DNA of 64,000 bases from a virus (Duplodnaviria > Caudoviricetes): the IMG/VR virus record IMGVR_UViG_2904899368_000001, positions 5,901 to 69,900 of that record. One strand, written 5' to 3'. The notes beneath the pieces were generated by a model. That model had not been told where the DNA came from and searched no databases. It saw only the letters and a list, made by a program, of their open reading frames with translations. Below, in pieces: positions 7,545 to 35,790 of this stretch. Position numbers and translations under genes: made by a program. Within the stretch, counting starts at the first letter, position 1. Every line of letters begins with the position of its first letter.

Positions 7545-8063
7545 ATGAACATTACGAAAGTTTTGGCGGAAGAAGTTGCCAATAAAATGGTAGAGCCGTT
7601 AGAAAAGAAAATCAACCTGTTGCATGATGAACAGGTCAGGATTACGGAAGAGGTGATCCGAAAATCCATTCCACAGGAAATCACCGACTGTTTTCAAAAG
7701 TTCCGGTCTTATTTCTCTGTTGCATATAGCATCACACTGTTTAACGGTTCCTATGAAAAACGTGTTGCCGGACTGAAAGGATTTCCCAGCGCAAACGCTT
7801 ACTATCCTCACATTGAGGCGGACAGGGAAGTTATTGAAAAGATAGACAAACTGGAAATCGAGATCAGTGCGGTAAAGGATGAGAAGACCAAGGTATATGA
7901 ATCAGTCGTTGCGTCACTTCTGACATTACGGACATTCAAAAGAATCAAAGAGAATTTCCCTGAGGCATACAGACATATTGCCTGCTATGAAGATAAGGGA
8001 AAAACATCCGTATCCCTGCCGATAGACAATATCATGGACACTTTGAAAAAATACACCGTATGA
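7545..8063 (+). CDS. hypothetical phage protein
   Basis: 172-aa ORF after an AT-rich promoter-like gap (TATCTTTAC near 7504). Confidence 0.6.
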   Translation: MNITKVLAEEVANKMVEPLEKKINLLHDEQVRITEEVIRKSIPQEITDCFQKFRSYFSVAYSITLFNGSYEKRVAGLKGFPSANAYYPHIEADREVIEKIDKLEIEISAVKDEKTKVYESVVASLLTLRTFKRIKENFPEAYRHIACYEDKGKTSVSLPIDNIMDTLKKYTV

Positions 8064-8156: not shown

Positions 8157-8558
8157 ATGCAAGAAACAACTCAATTGAACACACTGACCAACATCGTATT
8201 TGTCCTCACGGACGTTTTAGAAACCAACCTTCTAGAAATGCAGCAGCAATACAAGAAGGAAGGCTTTGAATTGCGGCACGATTCAAAAAGAAACTTCAAC
8301 ACAGCCATAGCCGCGATAAAGAGATTGAAAAGTGATGTGAATCATTGCAGCGAATCCACTCAGGAAAACTTCGGCAATGATTCTGACATGGTGAACGCCA
8401 TGTTGCTCACACTGATTGACAGATGCGGTGATGATGACAACCTCGCTTATAAGATGTACGAATACATTAAATCTTTCCCGTCCAAACTGAATCTGGACTT
8501 GGATTTGGATAATGCGTTCAGCCACCTGTTTAGAAAGGAGAAATCAACAAAAGAATAG
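8157..8558 (+). CDS. hypothetical phage protein
   Basis: 133-aa ORF. Confidence 0.6.
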   Translation: MQETTQLNTLTNIVFVLTDVLETNLLEMQQQYKKEGFELRHDSKRNFNTAIAAIKRLKSDVNHCSESTQENFGNDSDMVNAMLLTLIDRCGDDDNLAYKMYEYIKSFPSKLNLDLDLDNAFSHLFRKEKSTKE

Positions 8559-8562
8559 CATA

Positions 8563-13420: not shown

Positions 13421-15532
13421 ATGAAAAGAATCTTTTTGGCATGTATTTGCTATCTGTTGATTTTGCCTACAGGCTTATGGGCAAAACGAATCATTAAGGT
13501 GGCGTGCGTGGGCAACAGTATCACGTACGGTGCAGGTATTTCCAACCGGGAGAAAAACTCTTATCCCGCCCAGTTGCAGTATTACTTGGGCGATGATTAC
13601 GAAGTCCGCAACTTCGGTTCGAACGGAGCAACGGCGCAGTCGGACGGCGATTATCCGTATGTCCGTACTGGGGTGTACGGCGAATCGAAAAACTTTCTTC
13701 CGGACATTGTCCTGATTAAATTGGGAACGAACGACACCAAGCCGCAGAACTGGAAAGACGAAAAGCATTTTATGGAAGAATATCAAACGCTTATCGATAC
13801 CTACCGCTCGCTGGATTCGCATCCGCAGGTGATTCTGCTCACTCCGGTGCGTTGCTTCCTTACCGAGAAGAACACCGTCAGTCCGCGCATTATCGAAGAA
13901 AAGGTACGTTTGGTAGTCGAACAGCTGGCTTACGATAACGGACTGGGTATTATTAATCTGCATAATCTGTTTGGCAACCAGTGGGATCAGGTCATTATGC
14001 CGGACCGTTTGCATCCGTCTTCTATCGGTGCGGGTGCGATGGCGCGTAAAATCGGCGATTACCTGCTGAATGCAGTTCAAAGTAAGCCGGCAGCCATTGT
14101 ACCCGAAAATGCGACCTCCTTTAATTTTCACGGTTATCAGGGATACGATTTCCAGTTGGATGGGGTTCCTTGCAAAGTGGTACGTCCGGCTAAAGAAGCA
14201 CAGGGAAGACCCTGGATATGGCGGGCTCGTTTCTGGGGACATGAGCCACAGACCGACATCGACTTGCTGGAGCAAGGTTTCCATGTGGTATATTGCGATG
14301 TAGCCGACTTGTATGGTGCCGATAAGGCAGTAAAACGTTGGAACAAGTTTTACAAATATCTGGTGAAGAATGGTTTTCATAAAAAGACCGTACTGGAGGG
14401 CATGAGCCGTGGCGGACTGATTGTTTACAACTGGGCTGCACAGAACTCTGATAAAGTGGCTTGCATCTATGCCGATGCACCGGTCATGGACATCAAGAGC
14501 TGGCCGATGGGAAAAGGTGCTTATGCAGGTTCGGCCGAGGATGTGACACGGATGCTGGCAGCCTACGGCTTTAAGAATGAGGAACAGGCTTTGCGCTGGA
14601 AAAAGAATCCGCTGAATCATGCGGCCAAGATTGCACAGGCAGACATTCCGGTACTGCACGTAGTGGGCGATGCAGACGATATTGTTCCGGTGTCAGAGAA
14701 TACAGCCCTTTTCGAAGCAGAAATGAAACGTCTCGGTGCCCCGATTACCGTGATTCACAAACCGGGTATCGGCCATCATCCGCATTCACTGAACAATCCC
14801 GAATCCATTGTACGTTTCATACTGAAAGCTACCGGCCGGTGGTCCAACAATTGTACCCATGCCGTTCCCGGAAACGAGTATCGCTCGGCTGCCGGATGGG
14901 TGGAAGGCTCGGAGTGGCATTCGGTGGCACAGGATATCGAAACCACGCTGAACGAACGTAAACTGAAACTGCTGTTGCTGGGCAATTCCATTACGCAAGG
15001 TTGGGGCGGCATGCGTAAGCTCGTCAGCTACAAACCGGGCAAGCAGGCCATGGACGACGCTTTGGGACAGGGAAACTGGGAAAGTGCCGGTATCTCGGGT
15101 GACCGTACGCAGAACTTGCTTTGGCGTGTCCGTTACGGAAACTATAACCGGTGTACTCCGGAATATGTGGTGATTGCCATCGGAATCAATAATCTGGTAG
15201 TCGGTCAGGACACAGCAGACGATACGGCTGAAGGTATCATCGCCGTTACGGAAGAGGCCTGCAGGCAGTTCCCTGATTCAAAGATTATCCTGTTGGGACT
15301 TTTCCCTTCCGGAAAGGAGCAGGGCAGTGCAGTCCGTGAACAGTGCAACCGCATTCATAAACTGCTGGGCACGCATACCTTCGGAGCTCAGGTCAGTTAC
15401 ACAAATCCTACAGGCTGGTTTCTTGACGAAGATGGAACGATTCGTGACGGACTTTACAGCGGCGATTATATTCACTTCACAGACAAAGGTTATGCTTGTG
15501 TAGCCTCACATCTGATACAGTTGATGAAATAA
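13421..15532 (+). CDS. multidomain esterase: SGNH/GDSL + alpha/beta-hydrolase + SGNH (host-type carbohydrate acetylesterase)
   Basis: signal peptide; two GNSIT blocks; GTND and DRLHP; GMSRGG nucleophile elbow; DYIHF. Confidence 0.85.
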   Translation: MKRIFLACICYLLILPTGLWAKRIIKVACVGNSITYGAGISNREKNSYPAQLQYYLGDDYEVRNFGSNGATAQSDGDYPYVRTGVYGESKNFLPDIVLIKLGTNDTKPQNWKDEKHFMEEYQTLIDTYRSLDSHPQVILLTPVRCFLTEKNTVSPRIIEEKVRLVVEQLAYDNGLGIINLHNLFGNQWDQVIMPDRLHPSSIGAGAMARKIGDYLLNAVQSKPAAIVPENATSFNFHGYQGYDFQLDGVPCKVVRPAKEAQGRPWIWRARFWGHEPQTDIDLLEQGFHVVYCDVADLYGADKAVKRWNKFYKYLVKNGFHKKTVLEGMSRGGLIVYNWAAQNSDKVACIYADAPVMDIKSWPMGKGAYAGSAEDVTRMLAAYGFKNEEQALRWKKNPLNHAAKIAQADIPVLHVVGDADDIVPVSENTALFEAEMKRLGAPITVIHKPGIGHHPHSLNNPESIVRFILKATGRWSNNCTHAVPGNEYRSAAGWVEGSEWHSVAQDIETTLNERKLKLLLLGNSITQGWGGMRKLVSYKPGKQAMDDALGQGNWESAGISGDRTQNLLWRVRYGNYNRCTPEYVVIAIGINNLVVGQDTADDTAEGIIAVTEEACRQFPDSKIILLGLFPSGKEQGSAVREQCNRIHKLLGTHTFGAQVSYTNPTGWFLDEDGTIRDGLYSGDYIHFTDKGYACVASHLIQLMK

Positions 15533-15551
15533 CACTAAAAGAAAAATAAGT

Positions 15552-16941
15552 ATGAAAACCACTTTCAAGTTTGCAGGATTGTCTGCTTTATTATTCGGGC
15601 AGTCGCTTTGTCTGCTTGCACAGACAGCCTGGCATAACCCGGCGGCCGATTCGCTGTTGCCCATTCAGGGAAGAGCCTGGAATGCGGAAACCGGAAAGGC
15701 CTACCAGCGTTTGCCGCAGCGGGCCGAACAACTGGTCCGTAAACCCGTGTGGGACCTGTCGTTGCAGACAGCAGGACTCTATGTGAAGTTTTACACCAAT
15801 GCTCCACAAATTCAAGTAAAGTATCAGGTTACGGGGGGATTCTCGATGCCCCACATGCCGGCAACAGGTGTCAGCGGAGTAGACCTTTACACGATGGACT
15901 GCAACGGGCAGCAATACTGGTGCGCGGCCAACTATCAGTTCGGTGATACAGTGCGCTATACGTATAACGACCTGACATACCGCAACACGCACGATAAGGG
16001 AAACGAATTCACCTTGTATCTGCCTCTGTACAACGGTGTGAAGTCTTTACAGATTGGTGTGCCCAAAGGCAGCCGCTTCGATTTCGTGCGTCCGTCGGTC
16101 GAAAAGCCTGTCGTGATATACGGAACTTCCATTGCGCAAGGGGCATGTGCTTCGCGTCCCGGTATGGCCTGGACCAATATCCTGCAGCGCAAGCTGGATA
16201 TGCCGGTCGTTAATCTGGGCTTTTCGGGCAACGGACAATTGGACGAAGGTTTCTTCAAATTGCTGGCCGAAGTGGATGCGGCAATGTATGTGATAGACTG
16301 TATGCCGAATATGACGAACGACCGTGTAGGACTTATCCGTCCGCGTCTGGAAAAAGGCATCCGTATATTGCGCAGCAAAAGCAAAGCTCCCATTCTACTG
16401 GTAGAGCACGATGGCTATATGGGCTTTTACGCTTCGGATAAGAAAGGAAAGGAGTTCCGTAAGACCAATGAGCAGTTGCGTGCCGTATACGATTCGATGA
16501 AGGATGAAGCCGGAAATCTGCATTACATTACGTTTGACGAGCTGGCACTGTCTATGGACAGTCAGGTGGACGGAGTGCATGCTACCGACCTGGGTATGCA
16601 GCAGTATGCCGATGCCTATTATAAGAAAATAACCGGTATCCTTTTCCCGGAGCAGGCGACTTTATCCTTTACACCAGGCAGATAGCACCGCGATTCTTTC
16701 ACATACCAGTGGACAAAGCGGCATGATGAAATTCAGAATTATAATTCAACCGTGCAGCCACAAATTGTAATGTTAGGGAACTTTATCACTCACTTTTGGG
16801 GCAGATTGCCTTACGAAAAGCGCAGAATGGCCGATGATGTATGGCAAAAGCTGTTCAGGGGTAAGTCGGTTGTGAATCTGGGTTACGGATGGGACCGGAT
16901 AGAGAACGTACAGTGGCGGGTGCTGCATGGCGAACTGCTCT
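15552..16941 (+). pseudogene. SGNH/GDSL hydrolase, interrupted by an in-frame TAG (16683-16685) and truncated near 16940
   Basis: GTSIAQG, NLGFSG, DGVH in the first domain; reading continues in frame into GNFITH (block-I Ser lost) and NLGYGWDRIEN, then joins foreign DNA. Confidence 0.7.
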
Positions 16942-24418: not shown

Positions 24419-24784
24419 ATGGAATCAATAGAAACTAAAACCACTGATATAAGAACCATATACAAGACAGAGGAATTTGAAGAGTTCTACAATGATCTAA
24501 ATGCAAGGGTAAAGGATAAGTTCGAGTATACATTTGAACTTGTACAAACGGTGTATGCCTTGCCTGTAAAGTATATAAAGCATTTGGATGGAACAGACTT
24601 ATATGAAATGCGTGTGTCAGTCGGCTCTAATGAGTACAGAACTGTGTTATTTGCAATTGACAACAGCAATGTCATTTTAGCAACAAAAATAATCCTGCTT
24701 AACGGATTTTTAAAGAAATCTACAAAGGATTACAATAAGCAAATAGCCAAAGCAATACGAATTTTAAAAGATTTAGCATTATGA
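24419..24784 (+). CDS. RelE/ParE-family (Gp49-like) toxin
   Basis: LYEMRV..GSNEYR, LLNGFLKKS; own TATATTTG promoter; ATGA overlap with an HTH gene. Confidence 0.8.
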   Translation: MESIETKTTDIRTIYKTEEFEEFYNDLNARVKDKFEYTFELVQTVYALPVKYIKHLDGTDLYEMRVSVGSNEYRTVLFAIDNSNVILATKIILLNGFLKKSTKDYNKQIAKAIRILKDLAL

Positions 24785-25092
24785 TACAGTTAGATGAAAA
24801 GAAGTTGGCAAGACTCAGAACAACCAACCAGCAACTTAATGAGAAATATGGGGAACATGGTACAGATACTCGTGAGAAGTTCAATGAGAAGTCGATGGCA
24901 TGGTATTATGGTGATATACTTCGTGAACGCCGCAAGGAGCTAAAATTGACCCAGAAGCAGTTGGCGCAGAAAATTGGTAAGGAGCAAAGTTATATCGCCC
25001 GTGTGGAAAAAGGGGAAGTAGATATCCAGTTATCAAGTTTTTTCCGCATTGCGCGTGCGTTGGGTATCGAGTTTACGCCTACATTTGTTTGA
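24781..25092 (+). CDS. XRE-family HTH antitoxin
   Basis: LRERRKELKLTQKQLAQKIG..QSYIARVEKG. Confidence 0.85.
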   Translation: MIQLDEKKLARLRTTNQQLNEKYGEHGTDTREKFNEKSMAWYYGDILRERRKELKLTQKQLAQKIGKEQSYIARVEKGEVDIQLSSFFRIARALGIEFTPTFV

Positions 25093-25792: not shown

Positions 25793-26443
25793 ATGAATAC
25801 TTATTATAAATTCTGTCCAAATGTATTTTTGGCAAAGTGCGATGAAAAGCACGAAAAAGGAGAAGTTATTGAGGTTACAACCAAGTATGGCAAAGAGAAT
25901 GAAAGCATAGTTTTTAATCTGATTTTCGAGAAAGATGGTTTCTATTATTACTCTATCGTTCGGGCTGACGGATTTAATGTACAGGAATGGGCGAAGCAAA
26001 GAGCGGAACGCAGGCATGATTGGGCATCATTGGCTGCACAAAAGAGTAATGAGTATTTCAATCGCTCGAACAAAGATAGAGATTTCCTTTCCTTAGGCGA
26101 ACCAATCAAAGTCGGACATCATAGTGAAAAGCGGCACAGGAAGATGATAGAAGATTCCTGGAACAATATGGGCAAAAGTGCTGAGCTCAGCGACAAGGCT
26201 GCCGAACATGAAAGAGTAGCCAAGTATTGGGAAAAACGTGCTGAAACGATCAATCTTTCAATGCCTGAAAGTATCGATTTCTACGAACATAAGCTGGAAC
26301 AAGCTAAAGAATTCCATGAAGGTGTGAAGTCCGGCAAATACCCACGAGAACACGCCTACACTCTTACTTATGCCAAGAAAGCCGTAAATGAGGCACAGAA
26401 GAATTATGAACTTGCACTAAAGTTGTGGGGAGATGAAGAATAA
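25793..26443 (+). CDS. DUF3560 domain protein
   Basis: GEPIKVGHHSEKRHRK signature. Confidence 0.85.
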   Translation: MNTYYKFCPNVFLAKCDEKHEKGEVIEVTTKYGKENESIVFNLIFEKDGFYYYSIVRADGFNVQEWAKQRAERRHDWASLAAQKSNEYFNRSNKDRDFLSLGEPIKVGHHSEKRHRKMIEDSWNNMGKSAELSDKAAEHERVAKYWEKRAETINLSMPESIDFYEHKLEQAKEFHEGVKSGKYPREHAYTLTYAKKAVNEAQKNYELALKLWGDEE

Positions 26444-26618
26444 AGTATACGTTTTGTTTCAAACTGATATTTGGAAAACAAAATCAAGTAGAGTGTGTTT
26501 CGGTGTATTTCTTTATGAAAATGCTGCTATTGATGCTGCCAAAGAAAATGGTTTATATACCAATGAAAGTGAAGTTGATATTATAGAATGTGAACTTGGA
26601 AAATTTGAGGAATTATGA
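26433..26618 (+). CDS. hypothetical protein
   Basis: coupled ORF. Confidence 0.5.
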   Translation: MKNKVYVLFQTDIWKTKSSRVCFGVFLYENAAIDAAKENGLYTNESEVDIIECELGKFEEL

Positions 26619-26800
26619 AAACGATAGTAAAAGTCTATCTGAAAGACGAGCATGGCAATGAAGACTGGTTCGTTACCCCCATTAACCTCCCAGAACAAGA
26701 AGCGCACGAAAACTATATAGGTAAACGCTTCAATATAGGAATAGATACAGACCATATGATGAAATGTTGGAAGGTTGAGACCTTGAGAGTAGAAAAATAG
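26615..26800 (+). CDS. hypothetical protein
   Basis: coupled ORF. Confidence 0.5.
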   Translation: MKTIVKVYLKDEHGNEDWFVTPINLPEQEAHENYIGKRFNIGIDTDHMMKCWKVETLRVEK

Positions 26801-26878
26801 TATTTTTGCCCAGTTTTATTTGAAAGACAAATAAAATATTGTATTTTTGAGGCAGAAATAAGAGAAAACAGCTAAATT

Positions 26879-26999
26879 GAAGGAATGACAGAAATGGGAT
26901 TGTTAAGTAGCCGCCTGTCAGCGGTGAAAAAGGATGGACGTAAACAGTCTGACAGCGTGGAATATCATCCGATTGCAAGTTCAAGTCTTGCTTCCTTCA
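26879..26999 (+). ncRNA. oversized tRNA-like RNA (121 nt)
   Basis: acceptor GAAGGAA/TTCCTTC+A; D arm ACAG/TTGT with GG loop; T arm GCAAG-TTCAAGT-CTTGC; non-canonical centre. Confidence 0.55.
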
Positions 27000-27011
27000 A
27001 TTAGCTAACAA

Positions 27012-27084
27012 GGGAATTTAGCAAAGTTGGTCTATGCGTCGGACTGAAAATCCGAAGAACAAGGTTCGAATCCTTGAGTTCCCG
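27012..27084 (+). tRNA. tRNA-Phe(GAA)
   Basis: GGGAATT/AGTTCCC acceptor; TCGGA-CTGAAAA-TCCGA anticodon arm; CAAGG-TTCGAAT-CCTTG T arm; CCA not encoded. Confidence 0.85.
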
Positions 27085-27277
27085 CAACCCTTAGTAGTAG
27101 TCAAGCGAAAACAAGGACAAAAAGGCTTATGTAATTTACGGGGTGATGGAAATTGCCATCTGACACGACTGAAAGAAGCCGAAAAATTGCATGAGTGCTC
27201 TTGCGAGTAGCTTGAAAAATGATTGAGTTTGTGTTTAAGCCTGTCGGGAATATGCCCGGCAGGCATTTACGCAGAAA

Positions 27278-27808
27278 ATGTATGAAGTTGTACATAACCT
27301 GGAAAATATGGAAGTAACAATAAGGCCTCAAAGAATATCCGACGCAGAACATAGCTGGAGGATGCGTAAGGATAAGGATATATGGAAGTACGCTATTTGC
27401 GAAAGCCCCTACTCTCCCCTATCCCTTGAATCAGAAAACAACTTTTATAGAGAACAGTCAGAAAGTGATGAGTGTATACGCTTTGCTGTTCTGGCAGACG
27501 GCATATATGTCGGCAATGTTTTCATAGATAGAATAGATGAATCAGCATACGGATTTGGAGAACTTCACACTCATATCCTTAACAAAGCCTTTTGGGGTAA
27601 AGGCATAGGCTATGAATGTAACCGGCTTATCCTTGAATATGCTTTCCGCATCGCTAAAATGAATGGGGTTTACCAATATATCAATCCCTGTAATACCGCT
27701 GCATGGAAGAATGCCCTGAAACTCGGATTTAATGATATCGGTACTTCCTCTGTCAGGTCTAACGTACATATATTCATTATAAAAAAAGAGCAATGGATAA
27801 AAGAATAG
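27278..27808 (+). CDS. GNAT N-acetyltransferase (RimJ/RimL/SpeG-like)
   Basis: YVGNV, FWGKGIG acetyl-CoA motif, N.AA..ALKLGF. Confidence 0.8.
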   Translation: MYEVVHNLENMEVTIRPQRISDAEHSWRMRKDKDIWKYAICESPYSPLSLESENNFYREQSESDECIRFAVLADGIYVGNVFIDRIDESAYGFGELHTHILNKAFWGKGIGYECNRLILEYAFRIAKMNGVYQYINPCNTAAWKNALKLGFNDIGTSSVRSNVHIFIIKKEQWIKE

Positions 27809-28401
27809 AAATTATAGAACTGCCTGTGTCCGAACTTAAGACAGAGTTTGGGAATCCCCGTAAACCATTAAAGAAGAAGGCCAAGGAGAAGCTGAAGGAG
27901 TCACTTGACAACCTTGGCGATTTCGGCGTTATCGTCATTGACGAACACAACAATATCATATCCGGACACCAACGTGTTTCCATTCTTATGGAGAATCCTG
28001 ACACTCAAGTTTTGTGCAAACGCCTTATTGGTTACAGTGAATCAGAATTAAAGGCTATTAATATCAAAGCGAACACCCATGCCGGCGAATGGGATATGGA
28101 CAAGCTGGCTGAATGGACCGCAGACTTGAAAATCGATTTGAGCCTTGACCTTGAAAATCTGAATGTCAAAGAAACAAAGATCAAGGATATGGAACTGATA
28201 CGCTATGAAAAATACGATTATGTGATGATTGTATGTCGTAACGAGATAGACCATCTGAATCTGACCCGTGCTCTTGGAATTGACGACAAGAAAGTTCTTG
28301 TATCCAGAAACGCCACCAGAGAGCGTAAGATTAAAGCACGTGCCGTATGGTACGATGATATAAAAGCCCAGATTATGCCTAAAAAAGAAAAAGAACAATG
28401 A
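27793..28401 (+). CDS. ParB/Srx-domain protein
   Basis: NPRK..LKESL..G; IVIDEHNNIISGHQR; KANTHAGEWD. Confidence 0.85.
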   Translation: MDKRIEIIELPVSELKTEFGNPRKPLKKKAKEKLKESLDNLGDFGVIVIDEHNNIISGHQRVSILMENPDTQVLCKRLIGYSESELKAINIKANTHAGEWDMDKLAEWTADLKIDLSLDLENLNVKETKIKDMELIRYEKYDYVMIVCRNEIDHLNLTRALGIDDKKVLVSRNATRERKIKARAVWYDDIKAQIMPKKEKEQ

Positions 28402-29429
28402 AAAATTTCAATGTACTGCTTACGTGCTGCTCCATCCACGTAAAAGAAATGATAGATTGTTTGAAAAACAATGAAGACGGAGTTGATATAAAAGTATATG
28501 TCGCAAATTCCGTTGCGGCCAACCTCCCGCCTGCTGAACTGTCAGACGGTAATTTTGTGGTTCCGCCCATTTCTGCTCCAAATTATGTTGAAACACTCAT
28601 ATCCTTATGCAAGGAATATGATGTTTCAATCATCATGCCTACAGCGACATTGGAGTTGGAAATAATGGCTCGCGCTAAAGATAAGTTTGAGCAAAACGGT
28701 ATTCTTGTATCTGTTTCTTCTATTGACAGTCTTCTGGTTGCCAACAATAAGATTGCTCTTTATAGTTGTTATGCCGGCTTAATGCCCAAACAGATCATTC
28801 CTGAGAGTGTTTCCGATGTGGATGCTTTCGCCTCTATGTTCAAGTACAAAAACAGCTCTATCTGTTGTAAAGTGGACAATCTGTGCGGCGGTAAAGGCTT
28901 CGCCGTTGTGGATGACAAGAAGTGCAATGATACCTCTCTATTCAACAAGTTCGGAGAAAACAGATACATATCCTTGCTTGATTTGAAATCCATCGTTGAC
29001 AATGGTAAAAATAAGGTTATCCTTCAGCAGAGAATCGAAGGACTGGATTACACCGTTAGTGCGCTTGCAGACAAAGGAGTAGTTACTCATATCTGCGGTT
29101 ATGTCGGCTACATGATGGCTTTCGGCTCCATTATGTATGGAGAAATCCAGTCCAACGACATGGCGTATGATATTGTCAGCAAGATTGTGAGAGAACTTGA
29201 ACTTGATGGTAATGTGGCTTTTGACTTCATTCTGAAGAAGAGCGGCAAGGTGGTACTGCTTGAAATAAACCCGCGTATCAATGCCTCTCTCCCGTTTGTA
29301 CGTCATGCAGGTTGCAATATGGTTTATTTGCGATGCAAACAATTACTTGGTTATGAAATTCCATCCACATATGAACTAAATTATGGATTAAAGATGAAAA
29401 AGTTCTATGACACCCGGTATTACGTTTAA
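28398..29429 (+). CDS. ATP-grasp ligase
   Basis: GGKGFAVV loop, QQRIEGLDYTV, FDFIL..LLEINPR. Confidence 0.85.
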   Translation: MKNFNVLLTCCSIHVKEMIDCLKNNEDGVDIKVYVANSVAANLPPAELSDGNFVVPPISAPNYVETLISLCKEYDVSIIMPTATLELEIMARAKDKFEQNGILVSVSSIDSLLVANNKIALYSCYAGLMPKQIIPESVSDVDAFASMFKYKNSSICCKVDNLCGGKGFAVVDDKKCNDTSLFNKFGENRYISLLDLKSIVDNGKNKVILQQRIEGLDYTVSALADKGVVTHICGYVGYMMAFGSIMYGEIQSNDMAYDIVSKIVRELELDGNVAFDFILKKSGKVVLLEINPRINASLPFVRHAGCNMVYLRCKQLLGYEIPSTYELNYGLKMKKFYDTRYYV

Positions 29430-30156
29430 CATATACGTCATGTCATATCAGCGACCTCATAAAATAATGACTAAGAATTGCCTTGAATACTGTACTTATG
29501 TCGTTAGGGAAGAAGAAGCTGATGCTTATAGAAATGCCGGCATAGATGATATGCTTGTCATTCCTAAGGATGCCACGCTTGAATGTGGCGGCAAGGTACA
29601 TAGTTTCATGTCAACGCTATATTGGATAATTGAAAACACACCGGAGGATGTGATATTTGTTGCCGATGATGATATAAAGCGTTTCTGTTATCGACTTGAC
29701 AATTATACTGCCATCACAGCAGAAAACTACCCTGACTGGAAAGAACGCACATGTGATGAAATACTCCGTATCGGCCAGCTACTTTACGATTTAAATCTTG
29801 GGCTTGCTTTTGATAATCCACAAATGGCTTTGTATGTGTATGACAAGGAATTTTGTTTTAAGGGAATGCCCGGTCATGTAAGATGGATAAACAAGAAAGC
29901 ACTCAAGGCCAGATATGATCTGAAAGACCCGGCGATATCCGATGTTGATATGATGTTACAGGAACTGCTTATGAACAGAGTTGTACTCCTGCCTAAATAT
30001 TTTCACAGCTACGGTATCCAAGCTTCCAATGAAGGAGGAACCACCATTGATTCCAGAAAGAACTACGAATATAGATGTGCAATGAAAAATAAATGGGGAA
30101 AGTATTATGAATTTGACTTTAGAAAAAATACAGCAAAGATTAATGTCAAGCGATGA
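29407..30156 (+). CDS. GREB1/TET-associated glycosyltransferase-like (TAGT, GT-A fold)
   Basis: YVMSYQR N-terminus, VVREEEADAY, DDDI DxD motif, DVDM..Q, N.GG..KWG. Confidence 0.65.
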   Translation: MTPGITFNIYVMSYQRPHKIMTKNCLEYCTYVVREEEADAYRNAGIDDMLVIPKDATLECGGKVHSFMSTLYWIIENTPEDVIFVADDDIKRFCYRLDNYTAITAENYPDWKERTCDEILRIGQLLYDLNLGLAFDNPQMALYVYDKEFCFKGMPGHVRWINKKALKARYDLKDPAISDVDMMLQELLMNRVVLLPKYFHSYGIQASNEGGTTIDSRKNYEYRCAMKNKWGKYYEFDFRKNTAKINVKR

Positions 30157-31243
30157 TTTGAAAACACCTCTATACATTGCAGACAAAAATGACTTCAAAC
30201 GGAATATCACCGATTTTGTAGCCGCTTTCAGAAAATACTACCCAAACTATAATATCGGGTACAGTTTCAAGACGAATTACTGCAAAGAATTCATCAATGT
30301 GGTAAAAGAAATCGGTGGATATGCAGAAGTTGTTTCTCCCAAAGAGTATCAGCTTGCACGGAACTATGGATTTGATGACAGCCGGATTATATACAATGGA
30401 GTTATCCCTGATTTGGGCAATAAGATACGATGTGCTAATCATGGTGGAATAGTGAACGTTGATAATGTAGGTGAGCTTGGTTCACTTATCGGAATATACA
30501 CCTCACCGCTTGCAATTGGAGTGCGTCTAAATTTTGATATTGGGAATGGCATAGTTTCAAGATTTGGAATTGATGTTGATAGCAAAAGTTATCAAGAAAT
30601 CATAGAACTACAACGAAGAGGATTGATAAAAGTCAAATGTGTTCATTGTCATATTTCTTATGCTCGTGGACTGTCGTATTTCAAGAAGCGTGCCGAAATG
30701 ATGGCTCGATATGCAAAAGAACTTAGAGCCAATATAGTTGATATTGGCGGCAACATGTTCGGTCGCATGGATGACAGTTTAAAAGCTCAATATGGAGAAT
30801 ATATACCATTGTATGAGGAGTATGCCAAAACTATTGGTGAAGTCTTTGCAAGAGAGTTCCCTGATGGAGAAGTGCAGCTTGTCACCGAGAATGGCACACC
30901 GATAGTTTCCACTTCCATGTCTCTACTTGCAACCATTATCGGCAAGAAAGTTATCAGAGGAAAAACAATGCTCGTTGTGGATTGCAAGCGTGATGATGTC
31001 GGTTTTGTCTGCCATACGAAAAATCCACCTTGCAATGTGCTTTCAAACGATAGCGATTACGTCGAACACGCTACCATTTACGGATGTACCTGTATTGAGA
31101 ATGATATTATCCATCGTGATTATTCCGGTCCAACTAATATTGGTGATAAGATTCTTATTTCTAATGTTGGAGCTTATGGTTGTAATGTTGCCAATGACTT
31201 TATAACACATAAACCAAAATGTATTTGCATTGATGATATATAA
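30143..31243 (+). CDS. PLP-dependent fold-III decarboxylase (LysA/ODC/BtrK-like)
   Basis: TPLY, YSFKTN (PLP lysine), EVVS..EY, IIYNG, SRFG, HCH, DIGG, GCTCIEND, NVGAY. Confidence 0.85.
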   Translation: MSSDDLKTPLYIADKNDFKRNITDFVAAFRKYYPNYNIGYSFKTNYCKEFINVVKEIGGYAEVVSPKEYQLARNYGFDDSRIIYNGVIPDLGNKIRCANHGGIVNVDNVGELGSLIGIYTSPLAIGVRLNFDIGNGIVSRFGIDVDSKSYQEIIELQRRGLIKVKCVHCHISYARGLSYFKKRAEMMARYAKELRANIVDIGGNMFGRMDDSLKAQYGEYIPLYEEYAKTIGEVFAREFPDGEVQLVTENGTPIVSTSMSLLATIIGKKVIRGKTMLVVDCKRDDVGFVCHTKNPPCNVLSNDSDYVEHATIYGCTCIENDIIHRDYSGPTNIGDKILISNVGAYGCNVANDFITHKPKCICIDDI

Positions 31244-31256
31244 GCCGTTAATCATT

Positions 31257-31332
31257 GTTTAACTCATTGTTAATCAGATATTTAAATTTTAATATCTCAC
31301 TATAAATCAGTATCTTAGCATTATAAAAGAAA
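31257..31332 (+). promoter_or_regulatory. phage promoter module, copy 2
   Basis: shares GTTTAACT, TGTTAATCAGAT, AATCAGTATCTTAGC and TATAAAAGAAA with 20003-20078. Confidence 0.5.
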
Positions 31333-31365
31333 AGCAAAGTAATAATTTAAAATAAGAGATAGACA

Positions 31366-31554
31366 ATGAAAGCAACAAAGTACATTAATTCAAAAGGTTT
31401 GCCAAAAGGTGCATTTATTTACAAAATAAAGAAAGATGGAACGAAATCTGCTCGCCCTACATTTCATCAGTTTTGTGGAACTGAAAAAACGGCAGAGGAA
31501 ATGATAGCAAGATTGATTAAATTGAATCCAAATTCAAAATTTGAAATCGCATAA
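31366..31554 (+). CDS. small basic hypothetical protein
   Basis: ORF after promoter copy 2. Confidence 0.55.
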   Translation: MKATKYINSKGLPKGAFIYKIKKDGTKSARPTFHQFCGTEKTAEEMIARLIKLNPNSKFEIA

Positions 31555-31565
31555 TAGATTGAGAT

Positions 31566-32579
31566 ATGGCAAATGCACTATACACAAAAAACGGTCACAA
31601 TATGTTTGAGGTTTCATCCCTCATTCAGAAGGCAATACGCAGGAGCAACAAAGACTATGCCTGCTATGCTGCTAACGAGTTGGCACCACGATTTAGAAAA
31701 TATCTGTGGAAGCGATTACTCTGTGTTTCAGCAGAGGATTGTTATGACCTTGTTACGAATAAGATTGTAGCACTCAAACAGGCTGATGACGCACAAAGCT
31801 GGCAGGACAAATCACCTCTATTCATTGAAAAGGCTCTCGGCATTCTTCTTGCCACAAGAAAGAATCGTGATGCTGATTATTTCGCCTGTAACCTGCTTAA
31901 TTCAAGAAACAGGATAGAATTGCCAAAGGATGAATATGTCGGAAGTAATGCCGGATGTTACACCAAAAATGGGCATGACATGTTTTTAGTTGCCGGATTA
32001 TTGGAACGTGCCATAATCGGCAAAGACGATATCAGAGCCGGTTATCTGGCCAATGAGTTAATGGTAAGGTATCGGGAGTTCCTTTGGAAACGGCTTATTA
32101 TGATAGCAGGTAATCTCAACTATCAGGCTATTACCACTGAAATTGTCGCATTGAAGAAAGCAGACGATATGCAACCCGGTAGTTCACCTAAATCATCCAT
32201 TTTCGTAGCAAAGGCTGTTACCGTACTTCTGAAAGTTGTAAAATACGGATATTGCGGTTTCTATGCAAATGATTTCCCTTATCCTGTCACATGTTTGAAA
32301 GACTATGACAACAGATACATGTCAATACCTAATTATGTATTTGACTGCCATACCCATAAAGGGAAGCAAAGAGGAAAGACCAAAAAAGAATTTATCATTG
32401 CCGAACAATCCGCATTAACCCCTTACAAAGAAGGTGAATACGACCAATGTGGTTGGGACAGATTTTTCTATCTGGAGAAGAACGGATTCTATGACAAGGA
32501 TCATATAACTCCGAGGCCGGATGAGAAAAAAATGAAAGAGATTGAGGACGGATGCGTACAGCAGTCCTTGTTTGATTGA
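31566..32579 (+). CDS. protein with a tandemly duplicated RarA/MgsA C-terminal-like helical domain
   Basis: two YTKNGH.MF...ANEL...LWKRL...IVALK.ADD units; SLIQKAIRRS; IPNYVFDCHT. Confidence 0.55.
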   Translation: MANALYTKNGHNMFEVSSLIQKAIRRSNKDYACYAANELAPRFRKYLWKRLLCVSAEDCYDLVTNKIVALKQADDAQSWQDKSPLFIEKALGILLATRKNRDADYFACNLLNSRNRIELPKDEYVGSNAGCYTKNGHDMFLVAGLLERAIIGKDDIRAGYLANELMVRYREFLWKRLIMIAGNLNYQAITTEIVALKKADDMQPGSSPKSSIFVAKAVTVLLKVVKYGYCGFYANDFPYPVTCLKDYDNRYMSIPNYVFDCHTHKGKQRGKTKKEFIIAEQSALTPYKEGEYDQCGWDRFFYLEKNGFYDKDHITPRPDEKKMKEIEDGCVQQSLFD

Positions 32580-32662
32580 ATGTTTTAATTGATAACTAGT
32601 GTATATCCGATGCGTCTTTGGTGAAAAGCCGAAGACGTATCGGCATGTAAAGTTATAAAATT

Positions 32663-33010
32663 ATGGGAAAGAAGGAAAGACAAGAATTGTTTTTGAAACA
32701 TTTCCGTGAAAGTCATGGAATTGTTTCGTATGCCTGCCAGAAAGTAGGTATAACGAGAGCCTGTTATTACAAATGGCGGGACAGTGACCTTAAGTTCAAG
32801 GAACGTGCTGAGGAAGTAGAAGAAGAAACCATTGATGTAGTCGAATCTAAATTGCTTTCCGCAATCAATAATGATGATTTAACTGCGATAATCTTTTATC
32901 TGAAAACAAAGGGTAAGAAACGTGGTTATGTTGAGCGTGTCGAGCAGGATGTCAATGTCAATCCATTCGAAAGTTTGATAAAAGAATTGCCGGACAAAAT
33001 AGAAGAATAA
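32663..33010 (+). CDS. terS: terminase small subunit (putative)
   Basis: HTH with ACQKVGITRACYYKW; AIIFYLKTKGKKRGYVER; directly precedes terL. Confidence 0.7.
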   Translation: MGKKERQELFLKHFRESHGIVSYACQKVGITRACYYKWRDSDLKFKERAEEVEEETIDVVESKLLSAINNDDLTAIIFYLKTKGKKRGYVERVEQDVNVNPFESLIKELPDKIEE

Positions 33011-34520
33011 TGATCTGAGCGATAAGGCAGCCTTGTATATGCAGGCGTGGAGAGACGATTGGTGCAAGTTCTGTTCCGATGTGCTGAAAGCGCGTTTGGA
33101 TAAAGAACAGCAGGATATTATTCACTCGGTTCAATACAACCGAATGACCGCTGTAGCCTCCGGAACTGCCCGTGGCAAGGATTTCTGTGCCGCTTGTGCC
33201 GCTATGTGCTTTATGTATCTTACTCCACGCTGGGTTAACGGAAGATTGGTAAAGAATACCAAAATTGCAATGACAGCTCCGTCCGGTCGCCAAGTAAAAG
33301 ATATTATGATACCGGAAGTTTCCAGGCTATTCCGGAATGCTGGTTTCCTGCCTGGACGTTTATTGTCTTCAGGAATCAGAACCAACTACGAAGAATGGTT
33401 TCTAACGGGGTTCAAGAGTTCTGATGACAATATGGAAGCATGGTCTGGATTCCATGCCGTAAACACATTGTTTGTTGTTACGGAAGCCTCCGGTATATCA
33501 GAAGTTATCTACAATGCCATCGAAGGTAATTTGCAGGGAAATTCCCGTTTGCTAATAGTGTTCAACCCTAACGTGACCACAGGATATGCTGCACGTGCCA
33601 TGAAGTCTGACCGTTTTGCCAAATTCAGGTTAAGTTCCCTTAATGCTGAGAATGTTGTAAGCAAGAAAATAGTTATTCCTGGTCAAGTTGATTATGAATG
33701 GGTGAAAGACAAAGTGGAAAACTGGTGCTCACCTATCCAGCAAGCTGACTTCAACGAAGGTGAAGGGGACTTCAAATGGGAAGACGGTCTATATCGGCCG
33801 AATGACTTGTTCCGTGTGAAAGTGCTCGGTATGTTCCCTAAAGTGGCGGAAGATGTGCTTATCCCCTACGAATGGATTGAAATCGCCAACGAGAATTGGA
33901 GGAAACTGCAAGAAGATGATTTTGTTCCAAAGAAAAGCTGCAAGATTGGTGTCGATGTTGCCGGCATGGGACGTGATGACAGTGTGCTGTGTCTAAGATA
34001 TGGCAACTATGTCAGTGAGTTTGAAGCGCACCAGTCTGCTGGAACGGCAGACCACATGCACGTAGCCGGAATGATAACCAGATATCTTGACAAGAAGGGT
34101 GCGAAAGCATTTATTGATACTATCGGCGAAGGAGCAGGAGTGTTATCTCGGTTGCAGGAACTTGGGTACCCAAATGTGTATTCTTGTAAGTTCTCCGAGA
34201 GTGCACGTGGGCTGCATGATATAACAGGCGAATACACCTTCGCCAACATGAGGGCTTATCTGTTTTGGGCGGTACGTGACTGGCTTAATCCCAAAAATGG
34301 GTTTGGTGCCGCTCTCCCACCCTGTGATAAACTTATGGAAGAAGCAACGGAAACACATTGGGGATTTATGAGTAATGGCAGTATCATCATAGAAAAGAAA
34401 GAGGAGATTAAAAAACGTATCAAACGTTCTCCTGACTGGTTCGATTCCCTCGCCAATACATTCTTTCCGTGGGATTACTTGGCTGTCAGTGATGAGGATA
34501 TTCTACGAAATATGTTGTGA
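33010..34520 (+). CDS. terL: terminase large subunit (probable 1-nt deletion in the start region)
   Basis: SGTARGKD Walker A, VVTEASG Walker B, IVFNP, IGVDVA..GRD, IDTIGEG, SPDWFD. Confidence 0.9.
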
Positions 34521-34546
34521 GTTGCATAAATTGAAATACAGGAATT

Positions 34547-34861
34547 ATGAAACAGCAAGATTTAAACCGTATGGCAATATTCTTAGGGCATAAATTGCCC
34601 ATTCCGCAGGAAGAACATATTGCCGATACTATCAATAAGATAGAAGCGATATTGCAGAAAAAGAAAATAAACAAGTTTGTTAATGCTTCTGCCAAAGAAG
34701 GATATACTAAAGCATTGGAAATTCTTAAAAATAATGATGTCACTTTTAACAGATATGATGAGCTGAAAACTATACAGTCAAAATCCATAGCTGCCATCAC
34801 CGTAGATTATTTGAGAGGAAAATGTGCACAAGAAATCCTTTGCAATATTCCTCTGAAATAG
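34547..34861 (+). CDS. hypothetical protein
   Basis: 104-aa ORF. Confidence 0.55.
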   Translation: MKQQDLNRMAIFLGHKLPIPQEEHIADTINKIEAILQKKKINKFVNASAKEGYTKALEILKNNDVTFNRYDELKTIQSKSIAAITVDYLRGKCAQEILCNIPLK

Positions 34862-34893
34862 TTTTATTTTATTTGTTTTTCAAATAAAATGAT

Positions 34894-35028: not shown

Positions 35029-35790
35029 ATGAACACAATTAAAATTTTTGAGAATGAGCAATTCGGAAAGGTAAGAATTGCGATGAGTGAGAATAACGAA
35101 CCTTTCTTTTGCTTAGCAGATGTATGCCAGATTTTGGATTTGATTCCCAGTAAGGTAGCGCAAAGATTAGATAAGGATGTACTTTCAAAGTATCCCCTTG
35201 AAACAGCCGGTGGAATCCAACAGGCAAATTTTGTTGATGAGGATGGTTTGTATGATACAATATTGGATAGTCGTAAGCCTGAAGCTAAAAAGTTCCGCAA
35301 ATGGGTAACAAGCGAAGTGTTGCCACGTATCCGTAAGACAGGTGGCTACATCGCTACCAAAATGGACGACACTCCAGAAGAAATCATGGCACGTGCGCTT
35401 ATTGTGGCACAAGAAACACTGAAACGAAAAGAACAGCGTCTTATAGAGGCTGAGCGGAAGATCCAAAAAGATGCTCCTAAAGTCCTTTTTGCTGATGCTG
35501 TCTCAACTTCACATCGCTCTTGTTTAATTGCTGAACTGGCTAAAATATTACAACAAAATGGGGTGAATATCGGTCAGAACCGTTTGTTTAGCTGGATGCG
35601 CGAGAATGGTTATCTTTGTCAAAAAGGTGACTACTACAATCAGCCGACGCAGAAATCTATGAAATTGGGACTTTTTGAGCTGAAGCAAACCACCATCAAC
35701 AAGCCGGATGGTACCATGCTTGTCACGACCACGACCAAAGTAACCGGCAAAGGACAAGTATATTTCGTGAATAAATTCCTATCCAAATAA
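35029..35790 (+). CDS. BRO-N / KilAC (ANT) antirepressor
   Basis: FENEQFGKVR, FCLADVC, FRKWVTSEVLPRIRKTGGY; PKVLFADAV, GQNRLFSWMRE, KVTGKGQVYF. Confidence 0.9.
   Translation: MNTIKIFENEQFGKVRIAMSENNEPFFCLADVCQILDLIPSKVAQRLDKDVLSKYPLETAGGIQQANFVDEDGLYDTILDSRKPEAKKFRKWVTSEVLPRIRKTGGYIATKMDDTPEEIMARALIVAQETLKRKEQRLIEAERKIQKDAPKVLFADAVSTSHRSCLIAELAKILQQNGVNIGQNRLFSWMRENGYLCQKGDYYNQPTQKSMKLGLFELKQTTINKPDGTMLVTTTTKVTGKGQVYFVNKFLSK

Follow-up and report, generated by a model that had tools for sequence, protein, structure and literature searches.

Gene content of the locus

The window, i. e. the whole stretch of 64,000 nucleotides that was analysed, is part of a prophage from a gut bacterium. On its plus strand, five overlapping genes occupy positions 27278-31243, just ahead of the DNA-packaging genes (Table 1). 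The initial annotation had described them as an operon beside the terminase genes. All five open reading frames were found on this strand with the overlaps it had given, PHROGs identified terS and terL about 1.4 kb downstream of the block, and the domains it had assigned (GNAT, ParB-like, ATP-grasp, glycosyltransferase and fold-III decarboxylase) were upheld by Pfam, PHROGs and a structure model. As a conserved terminase-side phage module the operon stood; as a functional unit of five genes it did not. Universal are the ParB-like gene, the glycosyltransferase gene and a sixth gene, p337, which had been omitted, and the unit runs on to 32579.

Table 1. Positions of the cassette genes and the adjoining packaging genes in the window
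Feature	Position	Strand	Profile or other support
GNAT acetyltransferase, accessory	27278..27808 (shared start 27308 probable)	+	PF13302, PF00583
ParB-like protein, core	27793..28401	+	phrog_620
ATP-grasp ligase, accessory, partner of the decarboxylase	28398..29429	+	PF21360, PF15632, PF02655
GT-A glycosyltransferase, TAGT/GREB1 family, core	29407..30156	+	model fold, DDD87-89
Fold-III PLP-dependent decarboxylase, accessory	30107 or 30143..31243	+	PF02784, PF00278
Small basic ORF (62 aa) between decarboxylase and p337	31366..31554	+	
p337, core, two tandem RarA/MgsA C-terminal-like helical domains	31566..32579	+	profile and model
terS (32663-33010) and terL (33033-34520)	32663..34520	+	PHROGs

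The six cassette proteins (the five-gene block and p337) are all soluble, with zero transmembrane segments, and the ParB-like and p337 genes are interleaved with those of the cassette enzymes by overlapping stops and starts. The 62-residue ORF, whose tblastn matches were confined to loci of at least 87% identity, probably lies outside the core. Both possible ATG starts of the decarboxylase are in frame; the one at 30143 is the more likely, since with it the overlap is 14 nt long, as in relatives. The first ten codons of the GNAT reading frame are a deletion scar, and codons 1-7 (MYEVVHN) are a remnant of the start of glf, the UDP-galactopyranose mutase gene, which was deleted in the lineage of this prophage. 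The start that the GNAT has in common with its relatives is probably the ATG at 27308.

Conservation and spread of the cassette

The comparison covered 48 loci in other phages and in bacterial genomes. The ParB-like protein and p337 are each encoded in 46 of them, and the complete set of ParB, glycosyltransferase and p337 is likewise present in 46; the two exceptions are cut contigs. These three genes are an invariant core. The five genes of the initial annotation co-occur elsewhere only in part: ParB and glycosyltransferase recur throughout, whereas the ATP-grasp/decarboxylase pair was found in about 21-23 of the 48 loci and the GNAT in about five. The minimal cassettes (L060-L067 and L101) consist of ParB, glycosyltransferase and p337 alone, and in three loci (L051, L074, L079) p337 lies inside the operon. 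Around the core, accessories are swapped, i. e. ATP-grasp and decarboxylase, GNAT, UDP-galactopyranose mutase (Glf), PIG-L deacetylase and amino-sugar enzymes. Further sugar accessories in relatives are a UDP-glucose-dehydrogenase-like protein, a 4,6-dehydratase with DegT aminotransferase and WbqC, and extra ATP-grasps, of which relatives carry between one and three.

In an all-against-all comparison of six otherwise unrelated phage genomes the cassette core was essentially the sole shared content, and BLASTP (E < 1e-4) found no other protein family common to all six. In these genomes and in nine divergent loci read for gene order, the core stands directly upstream of terminases of differing families; an exception is Microbacterium phage Gina, where it is located near the right genome end and not before the terminase. 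The cassette is self-contained and mobile. The hosts of its carriers belong to the Bacteroidota, Bacillota, Treponema and Actinomycetota, and the carriers include 56 cultured Microbacterium phages of cluster EC, which are strictly lytic. The cassette is widespread, with hundreds of protein clusters and with prophages of gut Bacteroidota and Bacillota among its carriers; many carriers are prophages. No published characterisation of it was found in the literature.

The core proteins

The ParB-like protein matches phrog_620 with an E value of 2e-24, and its PHROG ParB matches span residues 1-133. Its N-terminus is a ParB/Srx nucleotide-binding domain with NPR, DFG and SGHQR motifs; the alignment shows a conserved C-terminal domain at residues 133-190 (YEKYDYVMIVCRNE...RKIKARAIWYDD), and Pfam and PHROGs scans found no HTH. 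It is homologous over its full length to gp88 of phage Gina (hhalign probability 98.7%, E 4e-16). Compared by architecture alone, it has the layout of the 5mYOX-associated ParBs, i. e. an N-domain and a C-domain with no HTH. The same layout of nucleotide-binding and C-terminal domain has been described for ParBs by which phage T-dioxygenases are activated on dsDNA (PMC13229309), and ParB has been reported to be associated specifically with post-replicative hypermodification clusters (PMC13229309; bioRxiv 2023.12.21.572611).

The glycosyltransferase scored 22.7 bits against the Pfam TAGT profile PF20691, below the gathering cut-off of 27.5, over profile positions 2-97 of 205. The glycosyltransferase of another phage's cassette (L101) passes the same profile with 47.5 bits. 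The AlphaFold model (pLDDT 86.7) has its best BFVD matches in phage TAGT-domain proteins and the T-even beta-glucosyl-HMC-alpha-glucosyltransferase (TM 0.62-0.72, E 1e-11 to 1e-8), and 30 of 30 ESM-Atlas neighbours are TAGT/GREB1 clusters. Solved structures gave only generic GT-A matches. The DDD87-89 motif is invariant in the alignment. Hence the TAGT identity proposed initially is borne out by the fold, though the Pfam score is below threshold, and the modelled protein did not turn out to have a non-TAGT fold. By its predicted fold, the enzyme is a member of the family that contains phage enzymes glycosylating hydroxymethyl-pyrimidine DNA.

p337 consists of two MgsA_C-like repeats and a conserved tail (PxYVYDCHTxxGKxxGKTK). 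Profile searches matched 3ctd (E 0.007), 3bge and 2r9g. The all-helical model (pLDDT 91) was aligned by Foldseek to RarA/MgsA C-terminal structures with probability 1.0 and an rmsd of 2.1-2.9 over about 100 residues, and five such structures gave VIA Z scores of 10.2-11.6, the next row being 7.8. The homologue in L101 passes PF12002; taken together, these matches place p337 with the MgsA_C helical domains. RarA/MgsA, whose C-terminal part p337 resembles, is a DNA-replication and repair factor, known as an AAA+ replication-associated recombination protein. Neither a P-loop nor an AAA match was detected in p337 by Pfam scan and model. Because the AAA+ P-loop ATPase module is absent, p337 is not RarA, and such proteins are mislabelled as "AAA-ATPase" in the records of Microbacterium phages.

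The accessory enzymes

The ATP-grasp protein matched PF21360 (PylC-like_N, 50.4 bits), PF15632 (ATPgrasp_Ter, 45.9 bits) and PF02655 (ATP-grasp_3, 42.0 bits). With both the PylC-like N domain and the ATP-grasp core above threshold it belongs to the PylC-like ATP-grasps; in NCBIfam it falls into the PRK12767 family of the "carbamoyl-phosphate-synthase-like" type. In the decarboxylase, too, both Pfam domains are above threshold (PF02784 62.8 bits, PF00278 24.0 bits), and together with its active-site motifs they make it one of the Orn/DAP/Arg (fold-III) PLP decarboxylases. Its best solved relative is the N-citrylornithine decarboxylase FslC (7kh2, E 1e-26); DAP decarboxylases come next. In the alignment, the PLP lysine (K in YSFKTN), the HCHI motif, the glycine loop and VGAYG are matched in FslC as well as in DAP decarboxylase, and a cysteine in the active-site region (CxxxD) aligns with that of FslC. 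The GNAT matched PF13302 (E 3e-15) and also PF00583, and weakly resembles the spermidine acetyltransferase SpeG.

Amino acid chemistry by ATP-grasp, fold-III decarboxylase and GNAT, as proposed in the initial annotation, is plausible. Decarboxylation had been placed before ligation, yet the reverse order is likely by analogy, because FslC, the nearest solved relative, decarboxylates an ornithine that is already conjugated. With BtrJ/BtrK, the analogy drawn in the initial annotation, ligation likewise precedes decarboxylation.

Search for priming enzymes

The absence of a TET/JBP dioxygenase and a hydroxymethylase noted for the window holds for the whole 69.9-kb provirus (93% complete), where neither Tet_JBP nor a hydroxymethylase/thymidylate-synthase homologue (PF00303) nor a C5-methyltransferase (PF00145) was found. 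A six-frame search with Tet_JBP (PF12851) was negative in all 13 cassette-bearing records, i. e. this provirus and 12 other phages, nine of which are rated 90-100% complete and one of which is a complete cultured-phage genome. In these searches the glycosyltransferase showed no genomic association with TET/JBP or another source of hydroxymethyl-pyrimidine, an association that counts among the marks of the TAGT family.

To our knowledge, all phage-DNA sugar modifications described so far begin with a hydroxylated pyrimidine, the product of either a TET/JBP dioxygenase or a homologue of thymidylate synthase, and we know of no GT-A enzyme that glycosylates a canonical base. The authors of a glycosyltransferase survey consider a role on DNA less obvious for contigs that have such an enzyme but neither 5mYOX nor ThyS (bioRxiv 2023.12.21.572611). 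Literature and records yielded no modified-base data for any carrier phage.

Possible function of the cassette

The best interpretation, to which we give about an even chance, is that the cassette performs a post-replicative glyco-aminoacyl modification of the phage's own DNA. The genes present, their folds, the division into core and accessories, the mobility, the lack of known base-priming enzymes and the solubility of the proteins come directly from the analysis; DNA as the target we infer from the context, and likewise the reaction order, the identity of sugar and amino acid and the acceptor atom. The core would attach a sugar to the DNA after replication and before packaging, and the ParB-like protein and p337 could keep the glycosyltransferase on dsDNA or activate it in place, much as phage thymine dioxygenases are activated by ParB. 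Extension of the sugar would follow in this phage: the ATP-grasp enzyme may ligate to it an ornithine-, lysine- or DAP-like or an acidic amino acid, the decarboxylase would strip the free alpha-carboxylate from this amino acid once it is conjugated and leave an amine, and the GNAT may acetylate an amine. Accessory swapping in relatives would diversify the decoration, as is to be expected if phages compete with host defences that target DNA. In Pootjesviridae, DNA glycosylation has been suggested to draw on Glf-type mutases encoded by the phages (PMC13326640).

Several observations speak for DNA: the fold family of the glycosyltransferase, the ParB layout without HTH and the likeness of p337 to a replication and repair factor; the presence of the core in nearly all loci, in six unrelated phages and next to differing terminases; and the very different envelopes of the hosts, the soluble proteins, the sugar-making and tailoring accessories and the kinship of the decarboxylase with an enzyme for conjugated ornithine. 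Tentatively, the triad of ParB, TAGT-type glycosyltransferase and MgsA_C-like protein might even carry out a dioxygenase-independent DNA glycosylation, with the sugar placed directly on an unmodified constituent (a DNA end, or in a canonical base an exocyclic amine or some other atom) and here bearing a decarboxylated and acetylated amino acid. We know of no description of such chemistry for any DNA-modifying glycosyltransferase.

A target other than DNA, a protein above all, is the main rival. We consider it unlikely that the cassette glycosylates a protein, whether p337 itself or one from the virion or the packaging machinery (capsid, portal, terminase), an amino-acid-bearing sugar then altering the virion surface or regulating packaging. 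Mycobacteriophages do encode glycosyltransferases that glycosylate capsid and tail proteins, and the cassette adjoins structural and packaging genes. What counts against DNA favours this reading, i. e. the absence of an enzyme making a known DNA sugar acceptor and the O-GlcNAcylation of a protein by GREB1, an animal member of the TAGT family (PMC7968844). However, a protein target leaves the obligatory ParB-like partner unexplained, the only tested role of ParB in phage modification clusters being the activation of a DNA-modifying enzyme on dsDNA (PMC13229309). Moreover, since the structural and terminase proteins of the carriers are unrelated, there is no conserved protein acceptor beyond the cassette's own proteins.

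Improbable is a lysogenic-conversion or metabolic "moron" whose product is a soluble glycoconjugate or which acts on a host glycan or nucleotide pool, with ParB and p337 in a separate packaging or regulatory role. Glf, PIG-L, DegT, 4,6-dehydratase, WbqC and ATP-grasp typically belong to pathways for surface polysaccharides and thiol cofactors, the sequence of glycosyltransferase, deacetylase, ligase and GNAT mirrors mycothiol synthesis, and prophages abound among the carriers. Yet the cassette has no membrane protein, flippase or lipid-carrier enzyme, its products are soluble throughout, lytic Microbacterium phages have the core as well, and the interleaving of ParB and p337 with the enzymes does not fit a separate role. 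A host-surface acceptor is further disfavoured because the envelopes of the carriers' hosts are very different and incompatible. Also improbable in our view is a DNA target reached through a conventional hydroxymethyl- or hydroxy-pyrimidine from an undetected enzyme, either a very divergent dioxygenase or one of the host. Phage-5mYOX profiles do retrieve thousands of contigs without Pfam TET/JBP annotation (O'Toole et al., PMC13229309), and the dioxygenase test here was the six-frame PF12851 search only. Nevertheless, the minimal cassettes hold nothing besides the core, the six genomes have no further protein family in common at the BLASTP cut-off used, p337 is all-helical and not a jelly-roll, and host supply would be needed across four phyla.

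A DNA-type glycosyltransferase with a ParB partner is typical of sugar-hypermodification pathways; here the pair comes with no priming enzyme and is nevertheless widespread. If DNA is the target, this means a new acceptor chemistry or a new base-priming route, and the amino-acid-bearing glycans would be a new family on DNA. They would matter for restriction and CRISPR evasion, for artefacts in the sequencing of gut viromes and for labelling DNA enzymatically. With a protein as target, it would be a new widespread phage glycosylation system in which the ParB requirement is unexpected. The cultured carriers make the question of the target directly testable.

Comparison with known systems

In phages ViI, PhiW-14 and SP10, Lee et al. 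(2018/2022) are said to have found an amino acid that is appended to DNA, decarboxylated on the polymer and in some cases acetylated. These pathways reportedly begin at 5hmdU, use a P-loop DNA kinase and an amino-acid:DNA transferase and are sugar-free; the cassette has neither the 5hmdU route nor these two enzymes. With FslC (rhizoferrin) and BtrJ-BtrK (butirosin) it shares the logic of carboxylate-amine ligation followed by fold-III PLP decarboxylation of the conjugate. Those are, however, small-molecule pathways with free or carrier-bound substrates, whereas here the context is a phage, a ParB and a glycosyltransferase.

The ParB-dependent 5mYOX clusters (O'Toole et al., PNAS 2026, PMC13229309) resemble the cassette in the two-domain layout of ParB (HTH undetected here), in the frequent glycosyltransferases, terminases, GNATs and amino-acid-adding enzymes alongside and in the post-replicative logic. 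They differ in that 5mYOX/TET-JBP was found in none of the 13 carrier records here, where the glycosyltransferase itself is the conserved partner enzyme, and in the MgsA_C-like protein, which is absent from the text of that paper. The C5-MT/TET/TAGT clusters (Burke et al. 2021, PMC8256090; Pyle et al., bioRxiv 2023.12.21.572611) likewise have a TAGT-kind GT-A near packaging genes, varied sugars and tailoring accessories. Their glycosyltransferases use 5hmC from an adjacent methyltransferase and dioxygenase, both missing here, and the cassette adds an amino-acid ligase and a decarboxylase.

A further comparison is with the Microbacterium cluster EC phages (Quhwahvirus), which are lytic and have actinobacterial hosts. 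There the core genes are annotated without an assigned function, and a UDP-glucose-dehydrogenase-like accessory takes the place of ATP-grasp, decarboxylase and GNAT. The core itself is the same and in the same order, as in Gina gp88-gp91: first the ParB-like protein, then the glycosyltransferase and the MgsA_C-like "AAA-ATPase".

Gene content of the operon

The five overlapping open reading frames named in the initial annotation are all present, with overlaps exactly as it gave them, and its GNAT, ParB-like, ATP-grasp and fold-III PLP decarboxylase calls were confirmed outright by Pfam and PHROGs. GNAT matched PF13302 (E 3e-15), the ParB-like protein phrog_620 (E 2e-24), the ATP-grasp protein PylC-like_N, ATPgrasp_Ter and ATP-grasp_3, and the decarboxylase PF02784 and PF00278. 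In the decarboxylase the PLP lysine is kept and the remaining active-site motifs align too; its best solved relative is FslC (N-citrylornithine decarboxylase, E 1e-26), after which DAP decarboxylases rank. GNAT weakly resembles spermidine acetyltransferase, and the ParB profile found only weak matches among solved structures. None of the six cassette products, p337 included, has a hydrophobic stretch sufficient for a membrane helix.

The beginning of the GNAT reading frame is a deletion scar of glf, the UDP-galactopyranose mutase gene (see table). The GNAT start of the relatives lies ten codons downstream of the point where the glf remnant begins, and in the related locus L019 glf starts at the ATG equivalent to the one opening the GNAT frame of the window. 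The lineage of the window once carried glf and has since lost it; it would depend on a host UDP-sugar.

The glycosyltransferase (GT) had been called a member of the TAGT family, which was reportedly defined by Iyer et al. (2013). The call missed the Pfam threshold (22.7 bits, threshold 27.5), but it was borne out by the AlphaFold model (12 homologues, pLDDT 86.7), whose best matches were phage TAGT-domain proteins and the T-even beta-glucosyl-HMC-alpha-glucosyltransferase (TM 0.62-0.72, E 1e-11 to 1e-8). All 30 of its 30 ESM-Atlas neighbours were TAGT/GREB1 clusters, and the DDD motif is invariant. The GT of a distant related locus, L101, passes the TAGT threshold with 47.5 bits. Against the PDB, Foldseek and VIA returned generic GT-A/nucleotidyltransferase folds for the model and no specific solved relative; the GT profile matched solved structures at chance level only.

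Coordinates and gene content of the features discussed (window positions unless another record is named)
Feature	Position	Content
Nmad5 protein	7545-8063	nucleotide-modification-associated domain 5
SNF2-methylase fusion	8512-11079	855 aa; SNF2 helicase, N6/N4 DNA methylase
SGNH/GDSL esterase genes	13421-16685	two, GC-rich (about 51%), inserted in the early region; one fused to an S9 peptidase-like hydrolase
Small upstream ORFs	24118-26800	matches: Gp49/HTH pair, DUF3560, YopX
Gp49-like (HigB-type) and HTH_3 pair	24419-25092	overlapping genes
tRNA-Phe(GAA)	27012-27085	directly upstream of the operon
Cassette	27278-32579	+ strand
glf scar	27278-27310	first seven glf codons (MYEVVHN) fused in frame
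GNAT start	ATG 27308	common to relatives
GT	29407-30156
p337	31566-32579
terS/terL	32663-34520
Extra base	33011-33012	terS-terL spacer
Bro-N/KilAC anti-repressor (Ant)	35029-35790	between terL and portal region
L019 glf	L019, 6787-7914
L051/L054		GT, p330, decarboxylase; p337 counterpart within operon
L074		GT, ATP-grasp, p336, ATPgrasp_ST; p337 counterpart within operon
L079		GT, p328, decarboxylase; p337 counterpart within operon
UDP-galactopyranose mutase		immediately upstream in relatives
ATP-grasp ligases		one to three copies, plus an ATPgrasp_ST, in relatives
PIG-L family deacetylase		15/48 loci
L138 (Lawsonibacter prophage) insert	L138, 1712-7825	DegT aminotransferase, UDP-sugar 4,6-dehydratase (Polysacc_synt_2), PIG-L deacetylase, WbqC; between ParB and GT
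UDP-glucose-dehydrogenase-like protein		Microbacterium phages
Gina gp88		ParB-like
Gina gp89		glycosyltransferase
Gina gp90		UDP-glucose-dehydrogenase-like
Gina gp91	MN585980.1, 51216-51836	labelled 'AAA-ATPase'; MgsA_C-like

p337 resembles the C-terminal part of RarA/MgsA

p337, encoded at the end of the cassette, has no Pfam match. A near-length search found 389 homologues and a profile search 1,882 clusters (50% identity), and the family profile matched crystal structures of C-terminal fragments from AAA+ proteins of the RarA/MgsA type (3ctd, E 0.007). The all-helical model (pLDDT 91) matched such fragments with a Foldseek probability of 1.0 and an rmsd of 2.1-2.9 over about 100 residues; in VIA, five RarA/MgsA C-terminal structures reached Z 10.2-11.6, and the next row, an unrelated one, 7.8. 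The long form of the window contains the MgsA_C-like domain in tandem duplicate and a conserved tail; short forms of about 180-240 aa contain a single copy. The P-loop ATPase module is absent, and p337 is therefore not a RarA.

Five distant short MgsA_C-like proteins (P0199, P0255, P0214, P0150, P0133) are encoded on short or non-phage contigs that lack a recognisable GT or ParB; members of the wider MgsA_C-like family thus also occur apart from the cassette. The diversity of these distant proteins made their alignment unsuitable for scanning loci.

The conserved core and its accessory genes

The initial annotation regarded the five genes as the functional unit. Our comparisons define a different one, in which p337 and ParB accompany the GT wherever the contig allows and ATP-grasp, decarboxylase and GNAT are accessories. 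This was seen when neighbours were mapped onto the 71 loci (39-100% identity) found by a GT scan of IMG/VR. ATP-grasp and decarboxylase were paired in most of these loci. The most distant group (L060-L067) lacks both, its cassettes consisting of ParB, GT and p337 only, and GNAT is present in just a few lineages. The p337 counterpart of several loci lies inside the operon, with genes overlapping or closely spaced on both sides. Another 46 loci came from a scan in which each bacterial species was represented by one genome. With core HMMs run on these and on L101 and L102 (Microbacterium phage Gina), GT was found in 48/48, ParB in 46/48 and p337 in 46/48 loci, and every missing ParB or p337 falls at a contig end.

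The accessory genes would diversify the sugar; the insert in the Lawsonibacter prophage is a full rare-amino-sugar pathway.

Distribution and mobility

All ORFs of five further whole carrier genomes were compared with those of the provirus. Four had almost nothing in common with it beyond ParB, ATP-grasp, GT, decarboxylase and p337, whereas the fifth (G007) also shared terL and most structural genes. The terminases of the carriers are unrelated or only 26% identical, and the packaging genes directly follow the cassette in each of the six genomes. The cassette is mobile and self-contained.

The still more distant L101, a complete phage of 42.7 kb, carries a ParB-like gene, a GT, two small genes and a protein passing PF12002 (MgsA_C). 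Fifty-six cultured phages of Microbacterium (cluster EC, genus Quhwahvirus) have this core too, with its gene order unchanged. Homology between Gina gp88 and the ParB of the window extends across both domains (hhalign probability 98.7%, E 4e-16), and the two GTs align weakly, DDD motif included. In most of the 56 records the 'AAA-ATPase' label of the gp91 equivalents is misleading, the ATPase domain being absent from these MgsA_C-like proteins. In the INPHARED phage collection neither the operon nor the GT had a match, at DNA or protein level; the cultured phages were reached only through p337 and ParB searches.

Hosts in the genome scan were Parabacteroides, Bacteroides, Alloprevotella, Muribaculaceae, Oscillospiraceae, Faecalibacterium, Ruminococcus, Lachnospiraceae, Roseburia and Treponema. 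Parabacteroides, with a GT 92% identical to that of the window, is the probable host genus. Near-identical sequence occurs in mouse, dog and pig gut metagenomes, in one aquatic metagenome and in isolate assemblies of roughly 5 Mb; a cultured host thus carries the prophage. The whole operon is covered by contigs of three RNA-library runs (two studies, P8 and P10), one contig of 8.6 kb corresponding to 26324-34890; DNA carry-over is possible, so they do not prove transcription.

Surroundings of the operon

The window covers positions 5901-69900 of the 69.9-kb IMG/VR provirus record, which has a completeness rating of 93%, and nearly all window genes lie on the + strand. An early recombination/replication region (YqaJ, DUF1351, VRR-NUC, SNF2-N6/N4 methylase fusion, Nmad5) is followed by small regulators, the operon, terS/terL and the structural genes. 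Nmad5 and the methylase fusion look like a second, separate DNA-modification module of the same phage; in the all-against-all ORF comparison the fusion had a match in one of the five carriers (G006, 33% identity) and Nmad5 in none. The esterase genes are host-type cargo. The small ORFs upstream of the operon include no hidden modification enzyme, and their Gp49-like/HTH_3 pair, found also in G006, is probably a toxin-antitoxin or regulator pair. A tRNA-Phe(GAA) gene immediately precedes the operon, and an anti-repressor gene follows terL (see table). All four compared runs (three RNA-library, one isolate assembly) have one base more than the window between terS and terL, a 1-nt indel polymorphism or assembly error outside the ORFs as called. 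A promoter and terminator scan of 26400-33100 stayed near shuffled expectation (28 against 21.3; 7 against 4.7), with a sigma-70 consensus, which is unsuited to Bacteroidota.

Possible targets and reaction order

Three lines argue for DNA as the target. The GT belongs to a family that glycosylates hydroxymethyl-pyrimidines in phage DNA. The ParB shares its architecture with ParBs that are reported to activate phage thymine dioxygenases, and to do so specifically on dsDNA; a specific association of ParB genes with 5mYOX (TET/JBP-type dioxygenase) or ThyS (thymidylate-synthase homologue) pathways is also reported, GTs (31%) and terminases (19%) being often found nearby (PMC13229309; bioRxiv 2023.12.21.572611; PMC8256090). 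Finally, the cassette moves among phages of four host phyla and, in those gut and metagenomic phages that were inspected, keeps its place just before unrelated terminases, which fits a DNA substrate. A substrate universal to phages would be their own DNA about to be packaged. A host-surface glycan fits this movement poorly, and a soluble or host glycoconjugate as the product is improbable.

That no TET/JBP enzyme or hydroxymethylase is visible, as first noted for the window, extends to the whole provirus, in which a six-frame search found no Tet_JBP, thymidylate-synthase homologue or C5-methyltransferase. Tet_JBP was likewise found in none of 12 further carrier records; nine of these have completeness ratings of 90-100%, and one is the complete genome of a cultured phage. 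Minimal cassettes contain no gene beyond the core, and no other protein family was common to all divergent carriers compared. A DNA target whose conventional acceptor is made by an enzyme that escaped these searches is improbable.

The chance that the cassette acts on DNA is about even, for the following reasons. No carrier has any known means of making a base hydroxyl. We know of no GT-A enzyme that glycosylates a canonical base. GREB1, an animal TAGT-family member, glycosylates a protein (PMC7968844), and GT contigs without 5mYOX or ThyS are less clearly DNA-directed according to Pyle et al. (bioRxiv 2023.12.21.572611). The GREB1 precedent speaks for a protein target, which we nevertheless regard as unlikely.

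The initial annotation placed decarboxylation before ATP-grasp ligation. The reverse is likelier, because the ornithine on which FslC acts has its side-chain amine conjugated beforehand, and in BtrJ/BtrK ligation precedes decarboxylation. By analogy with these enzymes, the likely order is that the GT would attach the sugar first, the ATP-grasp protein would then ligate an amino acid, the decarboxylase would act on the ligated product and GNAT would acetylate last. The product would be a polyamine-like tail on the sugar, possibly acetylated.

Relation to known systems

We found no paper describing the ParB/GT/p337 triad or giving it a function, and none that deals with modified DNA or resistance to restriction in the Microbacterium phages of cluster EC; the Microbacterium phage papers merely list the cassette genes. 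Some genes labelled 'AAA ATPase' in a neighbourhood figure of PMC13229309 might encode the same protein as p337. Dioxygenase-independent DNA glycosylation is a tentative reading of the cassette, with a realistic though less than even chance; if true, it would be categorically new. We would place the cassette, as a variant, among the post-replicative glyco-hypermodification clusters of phages.
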